Part shown: positions 8,384 to 47,300 of the stretch, one piece after another | Numbering within the stretch: position 1 is the stretch's first letter | Layout: each line of letters starts with the position of its first letter | Assembly (NCBI GenBank): GCA_024405635.1 | Contig: JAKSOL010000009.1 | Span: 32,001-96,000, forward strand | Direction of reading: 5' to 3' | DNA: 64,000 bases | From: Salinivirgaceae bacterium | Lineage (GTDB): Bacteria; Bacteroidota; Bacteroidia; Bacteroidales; SZUA-534 | Translations under genes and position numbers: made by a program | The notes under the pieces: model-generated | The model's database searches: none | Seen by the model: the letters and a program-made list of their open reading frames with translations, nothing else | Told to the model about the DNA's origin: nothing

Positions 8384-10711
8384 ATGAACATGAAAAAAAC
8401 TATTCTATCGGCAATGACTATTGTTGGAACTATGGTAGCCTGCACAACTAGCGAGCCTAAACTGGGCAAATCGTCGATTGACGACATTATTGCCGCAATG
8501 ACAATTGAAGAAAAAGCACACATTATTATTGGCACTGGAATGGACAATCAAGGCGACACTGCCGTGGTTGGAAACACAAAACACATCATTCCCGGAGCAG
8601 CAGGAACAACTTCATTAATTGAGCGTTTAGGCATTACTTCAATGGTACTTGCCGATGGTCCAGCAGGTTTACGCATCAACCCTCAGCGCGAAGGAGTTGA
8701 CCGCACATTTTTCTGCACCCATTTCCCTATTGGCACATTGCTAGCCTCAACATGGAACCAAGAATTAGTTGAACAAGTTGGTCAAGCAATAGGCAACGAA
8801 GTACTTGAATATGGTGTTGATGTTTTGCTTGCACCTGGATTGAACATTCACCGCAACCCTCTTTGTGGCCGAAACTTTGAATATTACAGCGAAGACCCTC
8901 TTGTTACTGGTAAAATTGCATCGGCCTACGTTCGCGGAGTTCAAAGTAACGGAGTTGGTGTTTCGCTAAAGCATTTTGCTGCCAACAATCAAGAGAGCAA
9001 CCGCATGGCAAACGATGCGCGAATGTCAACACGTGCATTGCGCGAGATATACCTTAAAGGTTTTGAAATAGCTGTAAAAGAAGCTAAACCTTGGACTATT
9101 ATGACATCGTACAACCATATAAACGGCACATACACTTCGGAAAACAAAGACCTGCTACTCACCATTTTACGCAACGAATGGGGATTTGATGGCACTGTTA
9201 TGACCGACTGGTATAGCGGTAACAATGTTGTTGCACAAACCGAGGCTTGCAACGACATGATACAACCAGGAACCGACCGCCAATTTAACATTCTTGTTGA
9301 CGCCATAAAAAACGGCAATATATCAGAAGATGCTGTTAATCAAAATGTTAAACGCATTTTGCAACTAGTAACAAAAACACCGCGATTCAAAGGATACCAA
9401 TTCAGCAACAACCCCGATTTAAAAGCTCATGCTCAAGTAACTCGCCAATCGGCAACCGAAGGCATGGTATTGCTTAAAAACAACAACACTTTGCCGCTAT
9501 CAAAAGAGGTGAAAAATGTTGCACTTTTTGGATGCACCTCATACCTGTTTATTGCAGGCGGAACGGGCTCAGGCAATGTTAACCGAGCATACACAGTGTC
9601 GCTACTCGATGGCCTGACAAATAATGGTTACAATGTTGATAGCACATTTACCAACACATACCAAACCCACATTGACGCAGAAAACGAGCGCAACCATTTT
9701 AATAGTCCAAACGCTGTTTTGTACACAGCAAAACGTCCGGTTGAATTGATTCCAGATGCACAAAAAATGAAAGTTCAGGCCGAAAAAACTGACATTGCTA
9801 TAGTAACAATAGGCCGCAATTCGGGAGAATTCTTAGACCGCACAGTTGCCGATTTTTCACTATCGTCAGAAGAACAACAACTTGTAAGCAACGTTTGCAA
9901 AACCTTTCATGCTGCAGGCAAAAAAGTAATTGTTATTCTAAATGTTGGTGGCGTTATTGAAACCGCATCGTGGAAAGACCAACCAGACGCAATATTATTG
10001 GCATGGCAACCTGGACAAGAAGGCGGAAACTCAATTGTTGACGTACTTAACGGAACTATATCGCCAAGCGGAAAACTTCCAATGACATTCCCAATAAACT
10101 TTACCGACCATGCTTCATCGGCAAATTTCCCAATTGAGGCTCGCCCTACTCACTACGAAACCGTTGGCGCCGCAAAAACAGAAGTTAAGAATTGGGACTA
10201 CACCAATTACGAAGAAGATATTTATGTTGGCTATCGTTACTTCGATAGTTTTGAAAAAGAAGTATCGTTCCCATTTGGCTACGGTTTAAGCTACTCTACT
10301 TTTGAGTATTCAAACATTGCGGTTAAATCAAATGCAAACGAAGTATCAGTTTCGTTCTCAATAAAAAACACGGGCACGGTTGCTGCTAAAGAAGTTGCAC
10401 AACTTTACATTTCGGCTCCTAATGCTAAGAGCAACAACAAACCCGAAAAAGAGTTGAAAGCCTTTGCCAAAACCACAGAACTAAAGCCTGGCGAATCGCA
10501 AACCATAACCTTAACAGTTAAAACTGCCGACTTGGCTTCGTTCAATTCAGAGGCAAGCGCTTGGCAAACCGATGCTGGAACCTACAAAATTCTTGTAGGC
10601 GCTTCGTCGCGCGACATTCGCCTTACTTCCGAAGTTGAAGTTGATGCTCTTGAAGCAAAAGTTAACAACGTGCTAAATCCACAAGTTGAGCTCAACTTGC
10701 TTAAACGATAA
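8384..10711 (+). CDS. GH3 beta-glucosidase, lipoprotein, with a C-terminal Fn3-like domain
   Basis: DGPAG, GRNFEYYSEDP, KHFAANNQE, MTDW nucleophile, FPFGYGLSY. Confidence 0.93.
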   Translation: MNMKKTILSAMTIVGTMVACTTSEPKLGKSSIDDIIAAMTIEEKAHIIIGTGMDNQGDTAVVGNTKHIIPGAAGTTSLIERLGITSMVLADGPAGLRINPQREGVDRTFFCTHFPIGTLLASTWNQELVEQVGQAIGNEVLEYGVDVLLAPGLNIHRNPLCGRNFEYYSEDPLVTGKIASAYVRGVQSNGVGVSLKHFAANNQESNRMANDARMSTRALREIYLKGFEIAVKEAKPWTIMTSYNHINGTYTSENKDLLLTILRNEWGFDGTVMTDWYSGNNVVAQTEACNDMIQPGTDRQFNILVDAIKNGNISEDAVNQNVKRILQLVTKTPRFKGYQFSNNPDLKAHAQVTRQSATEGMVLLKNNNTLPLSKEVKNVALFGCTSYLFIAGGTGSGNVNRAYTVSLLDGLTNNGYNVDSTFTNTYQTHIDAENERNHFNSPNAVLYTAKRPVELIPDAQKMKVQAEKTDIAIVTIGRNSGEFLDRTVADFSLSSEEQQLVSNVCKTFHAAGKKVIVILNVGGVIETASWKDQPDAILLAWQPGQEGGNSIVDVLNGTISPSGKLPMTFPINFTDHASSANFPIEARPTHYETVGAAKTEVKNWDYTNYEEDIYVGYRYFDSFEKEVSFPFGYGLSYSTFEYSNIAVKSNANEVSVSFSIKNTGTVAAKEVAQLYISAPNAKSNNKPEKELKAFAKTTELKPGESQTITLTVKTADLASFNSEASAWQTDAGTYKILVGASSRDIRLTSEVEVDALEAKVNNVLNPQVELNLLKR

Positions 10712-30226: not shown

Positions 30227-31024
30227 TCAAACGGATTTCTTGGCAGCCAACTCTCTTTTTGCAAACCGATATTGATACATGATTTTTGCCGAACCCAATG
30301 TTACAAAGTATTGCAGTACAGCCAATAGCAAGCCAACCACAATGAATCCCCAAAACAAGAAATTTGGTTTCAACATTATGCCCGAAATTGAGAAAAGATA
30401 ATCGGATATATTAGCTAAATCGCTAAACATCAACAATATGCCTATAGCCTGAATTACCAACAACGTAACCGAGGTAAAAATAGCTACTTGGGTTGATGCA
30501 GCATAAGCCCGTTTTTTTGTTAATCCAGGACTTAAATACCTAAACGACACATAGTTACCAGCTACTATACCAAGAAAAACATTGGCAAAAGGCAAACCCA
30601 TAGCCAATCCCATAAGAAACACCGAAACGTAAACGTAAATGATGCCTAAAATCCATTTGTTTACTGTAAAAAACGGGCTTCCTGCAAGCAACGACCAATC
30701 TATTAATACTCCAACTACAAAACCTGCAGTACCTATAAGCAATACTCCAATTGGAGGAAAAAAAAGCGAAGCTATAGCAACTGTTATAAAAGTTGTGAAA
30801 AATGGAGCAAGAGCCCAATAGAAGAAAATTGAGAATAGTTTAGGAAAATAGCAAACCACGTCGAGTAACACACCTAGAGCAACACCCATTGCTGCCACTC
30901 GCCACGATGGCACATCGTTTCCGTTATACAAACGCAAATTCCACACAGCAACCCCACAAACCACTGGCAACACAAGTGCCAACAGCAGTACTTTAAGCCT
31001 CAACTTCCATCCTATTGTTTGCAT
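30227..31024 (-). CDS. Hypothetical multi-pass membrane protein
   Basis: About 7-8 hydrophobic segments, no recognised motif. Start codon uncertain. Confidence 0.6.
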   Translation of the reverse strand: MQTIGWKLRLKVLLLALVLPVVCGVAVWNLRLYNGNDVPSWRVAAMGVALGVLLDVVCYFPKLFSIFFYWALAPFFTTFITVAIASLFFPPIGVLLIGTAGFVVGVLIDWSLLAGSPFFTVNKWILGIIYVYVSVFLMGLAMGLPFANVFLGIVAGNYVSFRYLSPGLTKKRAYAASTQVAIFTSVTLLVIQAIGILLMFSDLANISDYLFSISGIMLKPNFLFWGFIVVGLLLAVLQYFVTLGSAKIMYQYRFAKRELAAKKSV

Positions 31025-31108
31025 TTTTTAACAATCTAACGAGCCACAAAAATAAAAGCATTTGCACCATTTTTAATACTTTCGCAACTCACTTAACACA
31101 AAAGAAAT

Positions 31109-31480
31109 ATGACAATTGGAACTTTTATCGGACTAATACTTATTGGTATTGTAACTGGTGCATTATCAGGCATTTTAGGAATTGGAGGCGGGATTGTAAT
31201 GATTCCCGCAATGGTTTATTTTCTTGGATTTTCGCAACAAGAATCGGCCGCCACTAGTTTGGCCATTATGCTTCCTCCTATCAGTATTTTTGCAGTAATG
31301 AACTATTGGAAAGCTGGCATGGTTAACATTAAAGTTGCTTTGATAATGATGACCGCCTTTATGATTGGTAGTTATTACTCATCAAAATTGGCCATTATAC
31401 TTCCCGAGCATTACATTAAGAAAGGCTTTGCCATTTTATTGGCTTTCACCGCAGTACGAATGTTTCTTGATAATAAATAG
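31109..31480 (+). CDS. TauE/SafE (TSUP) family transporter, single-repeat form
   Basis: G.LSG.LGIGGG...IP and A.ATSL motifs in 123 aa. Confidence 0.85.
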   Translation: MTIGTFIGLILIGIVTGALSGILGIGGGIVMIPAMVYFLGFSQQESAATSLAIMLPPISIFAVMNYWKAGMVNIKVALIMMTAFMIGSYYSSKLAIILPEHYIKKGFAILLAFTAVRMFLDNK

Positions 31481-31517
31481 TGCGTTTACACCGCATTATT
31501 TGTTTTGATATGAAAAT

Positions 31518-31632
31518 AAAAAAAGCGAGACGGAAAACCGTCACGCCCCAAACCATTTATATGAAAAAAAACTATCTCCGAAGAAACTCTTTAGGGAACC
31601 TTAACTTTACGTTTCGTATCCCCTTGTTTTCT
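31518..31632 (-). ncRNA. Candidate small regulatory RNA of about 115 nt
   Basis: TATATTTG -7 box at 31637-31644, a 5' hairpin, a C(UUCG)G tetraloop hairpin, a single-stranded U8-CAU segment and an intrinsic terminator GCG.GACGG-tttt-CCGTC.CGC-T7. Confidence 0.65.
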
Positions 31633-31806
31633 GAGACAAATATACGGCGACATTAAACACCCACCTATAAAAGATTTATACGCTAACGTTTGCATAAATT
31701 CTATTTAACAATAATCTTTTAGCAAAACCCACTGATTTGCAAGTAGTTGCACTAATGCAAACGTGCGCATAAAAAGTTGCATAAACCAAAACGAAAAACA
31801 TACAAA

Positions 31807-32208
31807 ATGAGCACACCATTTGAATTAACCATGAAAGTACGCGACTACGAGTGCGATATGGAAGGCATTGTGAACAACGCAGTGTACCAAAACTACCTTG
31901 AGCATACACGTCACGAAATGATTTTGTCGCGTGGCATAAGTTTTGCCGAACTTGTTGAACAACAAATACATGTTGTAGTTGCACGCGCCGACATTCGCTA
32001 CAAATCGCCTTTGCGTAGCCGCGACGAATTTGTTGTTACTTGCAGCGCCAGAGTTGAAGGTTTGAAAATATTTTTTGATCAAGAAGTGCGACAACTACCC
32101 GACCGCAAACTTTGCGTTCAAGCAACTTTCACTTGCGCAGCTTTGGTAAATGGTCGGTTGGCAGCAATTCCTGAGCTAACCAACAAACTAATTGATGTCG
32201 CTGATTGA
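31807..32208 (+). CDS. Acyl-CoA thioesterase (YbgC/4HBT family)
   Basis: VRDYECD..GIVNNA.Y..YLE..R motif. Confidence 0.9.
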   Translation: MSTPFELTMKVRDYECDMEGIVNNAVYQNYLEHTRHEMILSRGISFAELVEQQIHVVVARADIRYKSPLRSRDEFVVTCSARVEGLKIFFDQEVRQLPDRKLCVQATFTCAALVNGRLAAIPELTNKLIDVAD

Positions 32209-44195: not shown

Positions 44196-44254
44196 ATTGT
44201 GTTTTTTGAATGTTAAGCGAATATACAACAGCAAAACAACAAATGCCAACAAAC

Positions 44255-44285
44255 AAAAAAGGGCGGCCTAAAGGCCGCCCTTTTT
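44255..44285 (-). terminator. rpoC intrinsic terminator
   Basis: AAAAAA-GGGCGGCC-taaa-GGCCGCCC-TTTTT. Confidence 0.9.
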
Positions 44286-44304
44286 ATAGTATTAAAACAA
44301 AGTT

Positions 44305-47300
44305 TTACTCTTCGTCGTTAAGTGCAATTGTTTCAAAGTCCTCTTTAGGAGTTACAATAACATCGTTAAAGCGGCGAACACCAGTACCAGCAGGAATCAA
44401 GTGTCCAACAATAACGTTTTCTTTCAATCCCTCAAGGCTATCTGACTTACCTTCAATTGCAGCCTCGTTAAGCACCTTAGTTGTCTCTTGGAATGACGCA
44501 GCAGAAATGAAACTACGTGTTTTAAGAGCAGCTTTGGTAATACCTTGAAGAACCTGTGTTGAAGTTGCAGGAACAGCATCGCGTGCCTCAATTTGTCTCA
44601 AGTCCTTACGTTTCAAGATAGAGTTCTCGTCACGTAGTTTGCGAGCTGAAATGATGCTTCCAACATGCAAGTCTGAATCACCTTTGTCAACAATAACTTT
44701 CTTGTCCCAAATCCAATCGTTTTCTTCAAGGAAGTCGTTTTTGTCAACCAATTGTTTTTCAAGGAATTTGGTATCACCTGGCTCTGCAATTTCAACTTTA
44801 CGCATCATTTGGCGAACAATCACCTCAAAGTGCTTATCGTTGATTTTCACACCTTGCAAACGGTAAACCTCTTGAACCTCATTAACAATGTATTCTTGAA
44901 CTTTGGTAGGTCCTTTAATTTTCAAGATATCAGATGGAGTAATCACACCGTCAGACAATGGGATACCTGCTCTTACATAGTCGCCTTCTTGTACAAGGAT
45001 TTGTTTTGAAAGCGAAATCAAGTATTTTGCCTCCTCGCCTGTACGCGATGTGATAACAATCTCGCGGCTACCACGTTTAATCTTGCCGTAAGAAACTGTA
45101 CCATCAATCTCAGCTACAATTGCTGGGTTAGATGGGTTACGAGCCTCAAACAACTCAGTAACACGTGGAAGACCACCAGTAATATCGCCCGCTTTACTAT
45201 TAGCACGAGGTATCTTAACAATTACTTGGCCACACTTAATTTTTTCTCCCTCTGAAACTACTACGTGAGCACCTACTGGAGTGTTGTAAGTCTTTATAAC
45301 ATCGCCTGCTTTGTCTTTAATAACAATTGCAGGGTTTTTGGTTTTGTCACGAGACTCAATAACCACTTTTTCACCGAAACCTGTTGTTTCGTCAGTCTCA
45401 CTACGATATGTTACATTTTCTTGGAAGTTATCCAATGTACACTCACCGCTGGCCTCTGAAATAATAACAGCGTTGTATGGGTCCCATTCGCAAATCAAGT
45501 CACCTTTCTTAACCTCTGCACCATCTTTTACATACAATTTAGAACCGTATGAAATATCGTGATGTGCAAGTTCAATTCCAGTTTCTTTTGCTACCAAGCG
45601 CATTTCTGCCAAACGACCAACAACTACATCTACACCTTTATCTTCCTCGCTAGCAATTGAGCGAAGTTCTTCAAAGTGAACAATACCATCGTTGTTTGCT
45701 ACAATGCTCGAATCGGTTGCAACGTTACCTGCTGTACCACCCACGTGGAAAGTACGAAGTGTCAACTGTGTACCAGGCTCACCAATTGATTGAGCAGCAA
45801 TAACACCTACTGCTTCACCAATTTGAACCATTCGGCTATTTGACAAGTTACGTCCATAACATTTTGCACAAACGCCATTCTTTGACTCGCATGTCAATAC
45901 CGAACGCATCTCAACTTGCTCAATTGGAGACTCATCAATAACTTTGGCAATCTCCTCGGTAAATTCCTCACCAGCCTTGATAATTAATTCACCTGTAATT
46001 GGGTGATAAATATCATGAACTGAAGTACGGCCAAGAATACGTTCGTACAACGACTCAACTATATCCTCGTTCTTCTTAAGAGCTGTAGCAACCAAACCTC
46101 TTAATGTACCGCAATCTTCTTCATTAATAATAACATCATTTGAAACGTCAACCAAACGACGAGTCAAGTAACCAGCATCGGCTGTTTTCAAAGCAGTATC
46201 GGCCAAACCCTTACGAGCACCGTGCGATGAAATAAAGAACTCGTGACCAGACAAACCTTCTTTAAAGTTCGATAGAATTGGTGTCTCAATAATCTGTCCA
46301 CCCTCTGCGCCTGCTTTTTGTGGTTTTGCCATCAAACCACGCATTCCACAAAGCTGACGAATCTGCTCCTTTGAACCACGGGCTCCAGAGTCAAGCATCA
46401 TGTATACTGAGTTGAATCCTTGACGGTCGCTACTCAATTGTTTCATCAATTTATCAGTTAATTGAGCATTAACACGTGTCCAAATATCAATAACCTGATT
46501 GTAACGTTCGTTGTTTGTGATGAAACCCATATTATAGTTACCCATAACCTCGGCAATCTCATCATAACCTTTATTTACCAATTCAGCTTTGTCGGCTGGA
46601 ATAATAACGTCGCCCAAATTAAACGACAATCCACCTTCAAATGCCATGCGGTATCCTAAGTTCTTGATATCGTCAAGGAATTGTGCAGTAACTGCAGTTC
46701 CACAAACTTTATATACTTTACCAATTATATCACGAAGCGATTTTTTGGTCAAGATAGTATTCAAATAACCTACTTCAGTAGGTACAAATTCGTTAACAAT
46801 TACGCGACCAACTGTTGTTTCAATAATACGGTCAACAATGTTTCCGTTTTCATCAACATCTTTGGTTTTAACTTTAATGTTAGCGTGAAGGTCAACTCTC
46901 TTTTCGTTGTATGCAATTTGCACCTCCTCTGGAGAATAGAAGGTAATGCCCTCACCCAACGCACCTTTTAGTCCTTTTGTAATGTAATACAAACCAAGAA
47001 CCATGTCTTGAGAAGGCACTGTAATAGGAGCTCCATTAGCAGGGTTTAGAATGTTATGTGAACCTAGCATCAACATTTGAGCCTCAAGTACTGCTGCATT
47101 ACCTAGTGGCAAGTGAACAGCCATTTGGTCACCATCAAAGTCGGCGTTGAACGCTGTACATGCCAATGGATGAAGTTGAATAGCTTTTCCCTCAATAAGT
47201 TTAGGTTGGAAAGCTTGGATACCCAAACGGTGCAAGGTAGGAGCACGGTTTAATAATACTGGGTGTCCTTTAATAACGTTCTCCAAAATATCCCAAACTA

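Follow-up and report, generated by a model that had tools for sequence, protein, structure and literature searches.

In the 64,000-nucleotide stretch of a Salinivirgaceae bacterium genome analysed here (assembly GCA_024405635.1, contig JAKSOL010000009.1, positions 32,001 to 96,000; hereafter the window), the minus strand at 31518-31644 very probably carries a real small RNA (sRNA) gene, previously undescribed and of a kind already known. This sRNA is a diverged positional orthologue of an sRNA found in single copy in a sister genus, g5 (16 species or genomes, metagenome-assembled from ruminant gut). In both genera the central segment of the RNA is complementary to the start regions of two genes of one sugar operon, which encode an aldo-keto reductase (AKR) and a FucP-type permease. 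The explanation that we favour is that of an independent intergenic sRNA, likely acting in trans on this one operon; taken as a whole, it stands in our judgement evenly balanced between right and wrong.

According to this explanation, a DNA-binding regulator would probably govern transcription of the sRNA through the ATGCAAACGTT sites and the ATTATTGTTAAATA block, and the same module is found in front of another gene, whose product is a secreted DUF3244 protein carrying a sorting tail of the type IX secretion system (T9SS) type. The sRNA itself most likely uses its unpaired central segment to act in trans, the most likely outcome being that a single operon for sugar breakdown is translated less. 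In g5, UUUAGUGGUU would pair with AACCACUAAA just upstream of start codons; in the source genome, where the operon is rearranged and its permease replaced, the seed would have been rewritten to U8-CAU-AUAAAUGGU, which would cover both start codons. That the partnership of sRNA and operon outlived a complete turnover of the seed, with promoter, regulator sites and scaffold fixed and the AKR and permease starts still covered, is put forward tentatively, and on balance we find it somewhat doubtful. Anatomy, synteny, promoter module and complementarities can be read from the sequences themselves; transcription, action in trans, repression as the result, the regulator and the sugar are inferred. 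The element consists of the following parts.

31644-31637, minus strand: -7 box TATATTTG, of the form TAnnTTTG
31518-31632, minus strand: predicted sRNA transcript of ~110-115 nt, its limits set by the -7 box and the terminator
31624-31619 paired with 31598-31593, minus strand: 5' hairpin with an AGGGGA/TTCCCT (GGGGA/UCCCU) stem
Between the 5' hairpin and the UUCG mini-hairpin, minus strand: AAAGAG, read from the sequence
31586-31575, minus strand: UUUC(UUCG)GAGA mini-hairpin, absent from the g5 orthologues
31576-31553, minus strand: open segment GAUAGUUUUUUUUCAUAUAAAUGG, predicted to be unpaired
31549-31525 and 31524-31518, minus strand: intrinsic terminator, a G+C-rich hairpin followed by U7 (T7)

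The box, the stem, the UUCG tetraloop, the open segment and the U7 terminator that an initial annotation had described on the minus strand all lie where it had placed them, and the transcript would start at about 31630-31632. TAnnTTTG is the -7 consensus of the Bacteroidota primary sigma factor (PMC7366714). Such a box is common by itself, with 69 occurrences on the two strands of the window, and a terminator scan, which detects the hairpin at 31549-31525, gave 2 terminator-like sites in 1.4 kb against 1.2 expected. What makes the arrangement more than chance is that the whole unit recurs at the same place in 16/16 g5 genomes. The earlier view of a self-contained sRNA gene with its own predicted promoter and terminator is supported. 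Folding of 131 nt (31510-31640) yields -35.4 kcal/mol (z = -2.83, equalled by 2/200 shuffles), and the 5' hairpin (31593-31624) has a minimum free energy of -11.3 kcal/mol and a z of -4.53, equalled by 0/300 shuffles. On the plus strand, the terminator hairpin has no T-run. A second strain (DNA run X2), 99.5% identical, spans the locus, and its sole change within the sRNA is a 1-nt deletion at 31593, in the A-U pair closing the base of the 5' hairpin. No Rfam family reaches its threshold for either the window RNA or the g5 RNA: across the window five tRNAs attain the gathering threshold and nothing does at the sRNA; the sRNA region searched against Rfam 15 gives 10 sub-threshold rows (best L20_leader, 24.9 bits against a threshold of 58.7), and the g5 orthologue gives three (best atoC, 27 bits against 50). 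The paralogous family that had been envisaged is not supported, there being one copy per g5 genome and one in the 2.66-Mb source genome, where BLAST returned only the sRNA itself and 22 other rows that are matches of 14-32 nt with E >= 0.37.

When the wider region was compared by BLAST, the block 31675-31718 was the only intergenic stretch found to be conserved in g5. The syntenic gaps of g5 hold, on the same strand, a TAnnTTTG box followed by a 5' hairpin, the sequence A(A/G)AGUUU, an open segment and finally a terminator, and BLAST and a covariance model agree on exactly one copy in each of the 16 genomes. The thioesterase gene that lies divergent from the sRNA in the window does so in all 16 as well (17/17). 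An alignment of window and g5 sequences has in common AAAGAGUUU and a terminator arm ending in CUCGC before the T-run. Since place, strand, promoter module, 5' hairpin, AAAGAGUUU and terminator arm agree, the window sRNA is a diverged positional orthologue of the g5 sRNA. The 5' hairpin folds in 15/15 distinct 5' parts (the window and 14 of g5; z from -1.84 to -5.01) and is built from at least five different stem sequences across g5, and the g5 terminator shows compensatory double changes in 2/11 pairs. A Rho-independent 3' terminator, by which intergenic sRNAs are recognized in PMC7366714, is present in the window as hairpin plus U7 and shows compensatory changes in g5.

The central segment behaves differently. 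Across g5, 15 distinct sequences differ freely in their 5' part but have one and the same 30-nt core, AGUUUAGUGGUUAUUA(C)GUGGUAU(A)UAGUUGU, and this core contains no CAU. The window RNA does not carry it: only AGUUU and scattered letters are in common, the UUCG mini-hairpin is inserted, and U8-CAU-AUAAAUGG stands in place of the core. Conservation is therefore split, the structure (5' hairpin and terminator) having been kept and the seed replaced. Within the invariant g5 core, a tandem motif can be seen, GUGGUUAUUA and then GUGGUAU(A)UA, which may represent two pairing sites or a protein-binding repeat. The sRNA was found in 0/16 genomes of seven other genera of the family, and BLAST of the g5 sRNA across the order (301 genomes), like that of the window sRNA against 33 genomes of the family, returned only short promoter, terminator or low-complexity matches. 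By eye, no comparable unit is seen upstream of the thioesterase gene at 7 loci of other genera. The source genome (2.66 Mb, 36 contigs) belongs to a genus with no other member in the genome collection, and a metagenome scan with the thioesterase protein kept 80 loci, the best 65% identical, and so gave no closer relative for a test of the seed.

Upstream of the -7 box, the sRNA has an elaborate promoter region, the parts of which are these.

31770-31755, minus strand: distal operator-like site ATGCGCACGTTTGCAT, imperfectly palindromic about ACGT
31715-31701, minus strand: conserved block ATTATTGTTAAATAG, ~54 nt upstream of the -7 box
31695-31685, minus strand: proximal operator-like site ATGCAAACGTT, ~45 nt upstream of the -7 box

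Over 87 nt, this region has a counterpart with 74% identity on another contig of the source genome, C7 (promoter region at C7:35438-35590), which stands at equal distance from a TACTTTTG box and precedes a gene of 218 amino acids whose product matches DUF3244 and, weakly, the T9SS sorting tail (Por_Secre_tail). The block ATTATTGTTAAATAG has two exact copies genome-wide, in the sRNA promoter and in that of the C7 DUF3244 gene. Across five aligned promoters ATTATTGTTAAATA is invariant (5/5), and TA..TTTG likewise aligns in all five. A near-identical distal site occupies the same relative place in front of the C7 DUF3244 gene, the g5 sRNAs and the g5 DUF3244 genes, and at the place of the proximal site 16/16 g5 sRNA promoters carry GCAAACGTT and 16/16 g5 DUF3244 promoters carry ATGCAAACGTTGC, equally distant from the -7 box. 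Two marks of the g5 family, the upstream ATTATTGTTAA block and, at a constant distance, the GCAAACGTT site, are found in the window as well, and a perfect TAnnTTTG box is kept in place in 17 genomes, the 5' end that it implies being a predicted one. On C7 the upstream neighbour, a tilS-like gene, runs in the same direction as the DUF3244 gene, and there is no divergent partner; the module therefore serves the downstream transcript there. A looser genome scan for more members of the module gave 15 matches against 9 for a reversed control, with two exact ones only, and the complementarity of each of the two sRNAs to the DUF3244 mRNA is no better than that of shuffles (85/100 and 36/100 as good). 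We take the palindromic sites to resemble LacI-type operators; the source genome has three LacI-family genes, none adjacent to the sRNA. As judged from these promoter sequences, the sRNA and the DUF3244 gene would share one regulator.

Several further observations concern this module. In both genera, the sRNA and the DUF3244 gene look like a small regulon, with a regulator possibly of the LacI type. The two lie ~3-6 kb apart on the same contig in at least eight g5 genomes, and in g7 genomes the DUF3244 gene is directly upstream of the thioesterase gene, near the place that the sRNA occupies in g5 and in the source genome. Over its initial ~30 nt, the g5 sRNA is similar to the leader of the DUF3244 mRNA (CAAAAGGGAACAAAACAAC versus GAAAAGAGAATAAAAGAAC), and the sRNA may have originated from a duplicated promoter plus leader. 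In strain X2, 5/7 substitutions within 1.5 kb fall in 25 nt (31729-31753); this cluster is flanked by the conserved block on one side and the distal operator-like site on the other, and the operator-like sites are unchanged. Farther afield, a flavobacterium, Algibacter sp., has a perfect palindrome, ATGCAAACGTTTGCAT, after ATTATTGTTAAAATA and upstream of a gene with a Met-Lys-Lys (MKK) start, and operators of this type may be widespread in Bacteroidota.

The candidate target emerged in g5. A BLAST of the g5 core against five g5 genomes gave mostly chance matches to terminators, together with one row in genome G009 that falls in the 34-nt spacer, CCGCAUAAUAACCACUAAAAC, before a gene of the major facilitator superfamily (MFS) encoding 419 amino acids. 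This permease spacer forms 14 perfect base pairs with the core segment UUUAGUGGUUAUUA and four more with GUGG. Duplex energies were compared with those of a set of 2007 crude gene starts of the source genome (-30 to +24): the G009 duplex, at -26.1 kcal/mol, is reached by 0.05% of these null start regions and by 0/1000 shuffled cores. The gene is the last of an operon that reads tagaturonate reductase, altronate-dehydratase family, Amidohydro_2, Zn-dependent dehydrogenase (ADH), AKR and FucP-type permease. Among 13 assessable g5 orthologues of the permease, 11 have AACCACUAA no more than 30 nt from the ATG; the same sequence is directly upstream of the AKR ATG in 6/14, and in one more it is off by one letter. 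The remaining AKR starts (7/14) have no site, and in six of these seven the AKR start abuts the upstream gene and leaves no spacer. This 9-mer is rare: each g5 genome holds 17-25 copies, one of them being the sRNA gene, whereas a reversed control occurs 67-88 times. The enzymes of the operon presumably match, family by family, the L-galactose-type route through D-tagaturonate. Such a route is described for Phocaeicola vulgatus (PMC12632266).

In the source genome, the best matches of the G009 AKR, ADH and Amidohydro_2 proteins lie together on the minus strand of contig C11 (63%, 57% and 51% identity), in the order AKR-ADH-Amidohydro_2-MFS, which is rearranged with respect to G009. From these sequence matches, the C11 operon is considered orthologous to the g5 sugar operon. 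The permeases of both genomes pass the cut-off of TIGR00885 fucP; the orthologue of the g5-type permease is missing in the source genome, where its best match is 43-46% identical and located elsewhere. The segment that has replaced the g5 core is complementary to the starts of the same two gene types.

31565-31552, minus strand: UUCAUAUAAAUGGU, predicted AKR pairing, 14 bp with one G-U
31572-31560, minus strand: GUUUUUUUUCAUA, predicted permease pairing, 13 bp with one G-U

The former pairs with ACUAUUUAUAUGAA at -9..+5 of the AKR gene (start C11:4116, minus strand) and the latter with UAUGAAAGAAAAC at -1..+12 of the FucP-type permease gene (start C11:1147, minus strand), to which UGGUUU (31555-31550) adds six base pairs with AAACCA at -18..-13. 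With the 24-nt seed, AKR ranks 9th of the 2007 start regions and the GH3 gene of the window 11th. Among 1000 shuffles of the seed, 3 reach the AKR value, 13 the permease value and 0 both. The start regions of ADH and of the lactonase-like Amidohydro_2 gene are unmatched (null fractions 0.96 and 0.87 with the 41-nt central segment). When the partners are exchanged, the g5 sRNA gives null fractions of 0.83-0.87 on the sites of the source genome, and for the window sRNA the values are 0.85 at the permease site of G009 and 0.09 at its AKR site; each sRNA thus fits the two sites of its own genome and not those of the other, except for the G009 AKR site. The two start regions, which share CAU, account for both halves of what had been called an MKK seed. 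That the AKR/FucP-type permease operon is a true target of the sRNA is a proposition that we would place slightly short of the balance point.

A number of observations pull in the opposite direction. In the assembled contigs of two metatranscriptome runs (X9 and X12, among four runs compared out of 14) the flanking genes are covered and 31053-31817 is not, which speaks neither for nor against transcription. A covariance model built from g5 only scores the window RNA at 11.6 bits (E about 1), fourth among its matches in the window, and has no match in the whole source genome at E <= 0.01, so homology rests on place, promoter and architecture and not on core sequence. The link to the operon was found post hoc, from the single G009 BLAST row, and the g5 sites were set against start regions of the source genome, not g5's own. 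In G022 and G048 the invariant core is kept and both the permease and the AKR sites are missing; the operon therefore cannot be the sole constraint on the g5 core. In the source genome the C11 permease is only 33% identical to the g5 permease, and no GCAAACGTT site was found upstream of the C11 operon. The window seed is of low complexity: eight genes, including those for an esterase, an FKBP isomerase and an aldose 1-epimerase, outrank AKR with the 24-nt seed, and the 41-nt central segment yields null fractions of 0.030 for AKR and 0.053 for the permease, placing these among the best 3.0% and 5.3% only. As for the sugar, an operon of the L-galactose/L-fucose kind is tentatively suggested by the composition in families and by the route named above.

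The initial annotation had proposed something else: by masking start codons, the U8-CAU segment could repress signal-peptide mRNAs beginning AUG AAA AAA as an entire class. The segment is indeed predicted to be unpaired, the near-matches that had been cited are present in the window at 8390 (+), 28517 (-) and 34768 (+), and 91 of the 2007 crude genes begin with ATGAAAAAA. With the seed, 90 start regions reach -12 kcal/mol or lower and 32 reach -14 kcal/mol or lower, against 16 and 0 coding-region controls. Shuffled seeds, however, give 62 +/- 27 at the first threshold, where 10/60 composition-matched shuffles attain the same count, and 13.8 +/- 8.4 at the second, where only 2/60 do; the excess of start regions over coding controls is a composition effect, such as any A/U-rich seed would produce, and the enrichment over shuffled seeds is marginal. 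Of the genes, 412 start with ATGAAA, 33 have A7 after AUG and none has A8, and cytoplasmic enzymes are among the top matches. Comparison lends the idea no help either, since the U8-CAU segment is absent from g5, whose invariant core is different and has no CAU. Masking of the whole class is not supported, and we regard it as improbable. It may be added that AUUUAUAUGAA occurs at the start codon of at least four genes, those of an esterase (C34:117445), an FKBP protein (C33:36629), AKR (C11:4116) and a C12 gene, and that this recurrent start context would be covered by CAUAUAAAU of the sRNA.

The other explanations take the central segment to have a different role, or none. The window sRNA could be a transcribed but decaying orthologue, having lost the ancestral core in a reduced genome, with a U-rich segment that has drifted neutrally and has no target. 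Its central segment is wholly unlike the 30-nt invariant core of g5, the genome measures 2.66 Mb against 2.6-3.7 Mb in g5, and the g5-type permease is gone; decay is nonetheless hard to reconcile with a promoter box, upstream module, 5' hairpin and terminator that are all intact, or with a rewritten segment that matches the starts of the same two gene types as the g5 core does, a double match that 0/1000 shuffles achieve, and we hold it to be unlikely. A protein-binding or sponge RNA, in which the tandem GUGGU(U)AUUA motif of the g5 core would titrate an RNA-binding protein and base-pairing would be secondary, would explain why both copies of the motif are inside the invariant core and why the core persists in G022 and G048, where the operon sites are missing, and Bacteroides sRNAs are reported to associate with RbpB, a protein with an RNA recognition motif. 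The window orthologue has no tandem motif, however, and in both genera the complementarity to two start regions is specific, which leaves this reading with little probability. Alternatively, the locus might act in cis, minus-strand transcription interfering, as antisense or by collision, with transcripts that run on from the TauE-like gene into the operon of the thioesterase, or it might exist only as part of a divergent promoter with the thioesterase gene. The sRNA does lie between two plus-strand genes, its linkage to the thioesterase gene holds in 17/17 genomes, and read-through is conceivable since the hairpin has no T-run on the plus strand. Yet the TauE-like gene is downstream of the sRNA in only 9/16 g5 genomes, the same module serves the C7 gene, which has no divergent partner, and an invariant, unpaired core of 30 nt would be unexpected if interference were all that mattered; a role in cis is accordingly rated low. 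Lastly, the translated feature could be a plus-strand open reading frame (ORF) of 31 codons, or 48 from an upstream ATG, which has an A/U-rich leader and an MKK start. However, 0/15 distinct g5 orthologues have a related ORF on either strand, the longer form crosses the terminator hairpin, and no TAnnTTTG box lies directly upstream on the plus strand. We consider translation of this ORF highly improbable.

As regards its surroundings, the sRNA unit sits in a 326-nt gap between two genes of the plus strand.

31109-31480, plus strand: TauE/SafE-family gene, 123 amino acids, matching profile positions 126-237 of 237 only (C-terminal half)
ATG at 31807, plus strand: 4HBT thioesterase gene, followed by TatD and ThiF-family genes

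The TauE-like gene is of half size; no N-terminal half is evident upstream, and the same short form is found at 9/16 g5 loci. Divergent from it is an ORF of 265 amino acids (30227-31024, minus strand) with no Pfam family at E <= 0.001. The best match of the g5 sRNA model within the window lies elsewhere, at 44250-44348 on the minus strand (20.8 bits, E about 0.009). It is A/U-rich, contains AAGAGU and has a strong terminator at its end, and may be a small transcript or a mere 3' end.

An sRNA acting in trans on a sugar operon, as favoured here, would have counterparts among known systems. GibS and FopS of Bacteroides are described as pairing with translation-initiation regions (PMC7366714, PMC11697453). 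As portrayed in PMC7366714, GibS of B. thetaiotaomicron is likewise intergenic and A/U-rich, has its own start and an intrinsic terminator, and places a single-stranded seed on the initiation regions of metabolic mRNAs, in a phylum said there to have neither Hfq nor ProQ; it differs in its promoter motif (PM2), in a seed located in the 5' portion and in its conservation within the genus Bacteroides (PMC7366714). The window sRNA, compared with GibS by description and not by sequence, has a canonical -7 box and a central seed and occurs in another family. The FopS family of B. thetaiotaomicron has canonical primary-sigma promoters, binds near the start codons of glycan-uptake genes and represses their translation, according to the account in PMC11697453, which also gives it at least 12 copies per genome with a common R1 seed. 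The window sRNA is single-copy and, by copy number, is not a FopS member. It is predicted to target a cytoplasmic dehydrogenase and an inner-membrane permease, whereas FopS targets SusC-like transporters. Spot 42 of E. coli is under a sugar-responsive transcription factor and represses genes for secondary sugars. It is alike in function in that it represses the fucose permease gene fucP by pairing (PMC10729762), and differs in being unrelated in sequence and phylum and in depending on Hfq and CsrA. The likeness to Spot 42 is a functional analogy only. The two sRNAs studied here also differ from each other in that the g5 sRNA pairs upstream of the AUG and the window RNA across it.

Full-text searching of the literature turned up no paper on both Salinivirgaceae and sRNA. 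Known sRNA-target pairs are very few in Bacteroidota as a whole, and to our knowledge there are none in the uncultured Salinivirgaceae of rumen and gut. If the sRNA alone were confirmed, it would be one more lineage-restricted sRNA. The locus nevertheless offers a testable sRNA-target pair in two genera with different seeds and with two predicted start regions in each. Should the proposed explanation be true, it would show an sRNA keeping its regulatory job while its seed was replaced, a case of seed-target co-evolution at a conserved Bacteroidota sRNA locus. It would also reveal a Spot-42-like layer of the sugar hierarchy in a phylum without Hfq, and sugar choice in gut Bacteroidales would gain a post-transcriptional layer.

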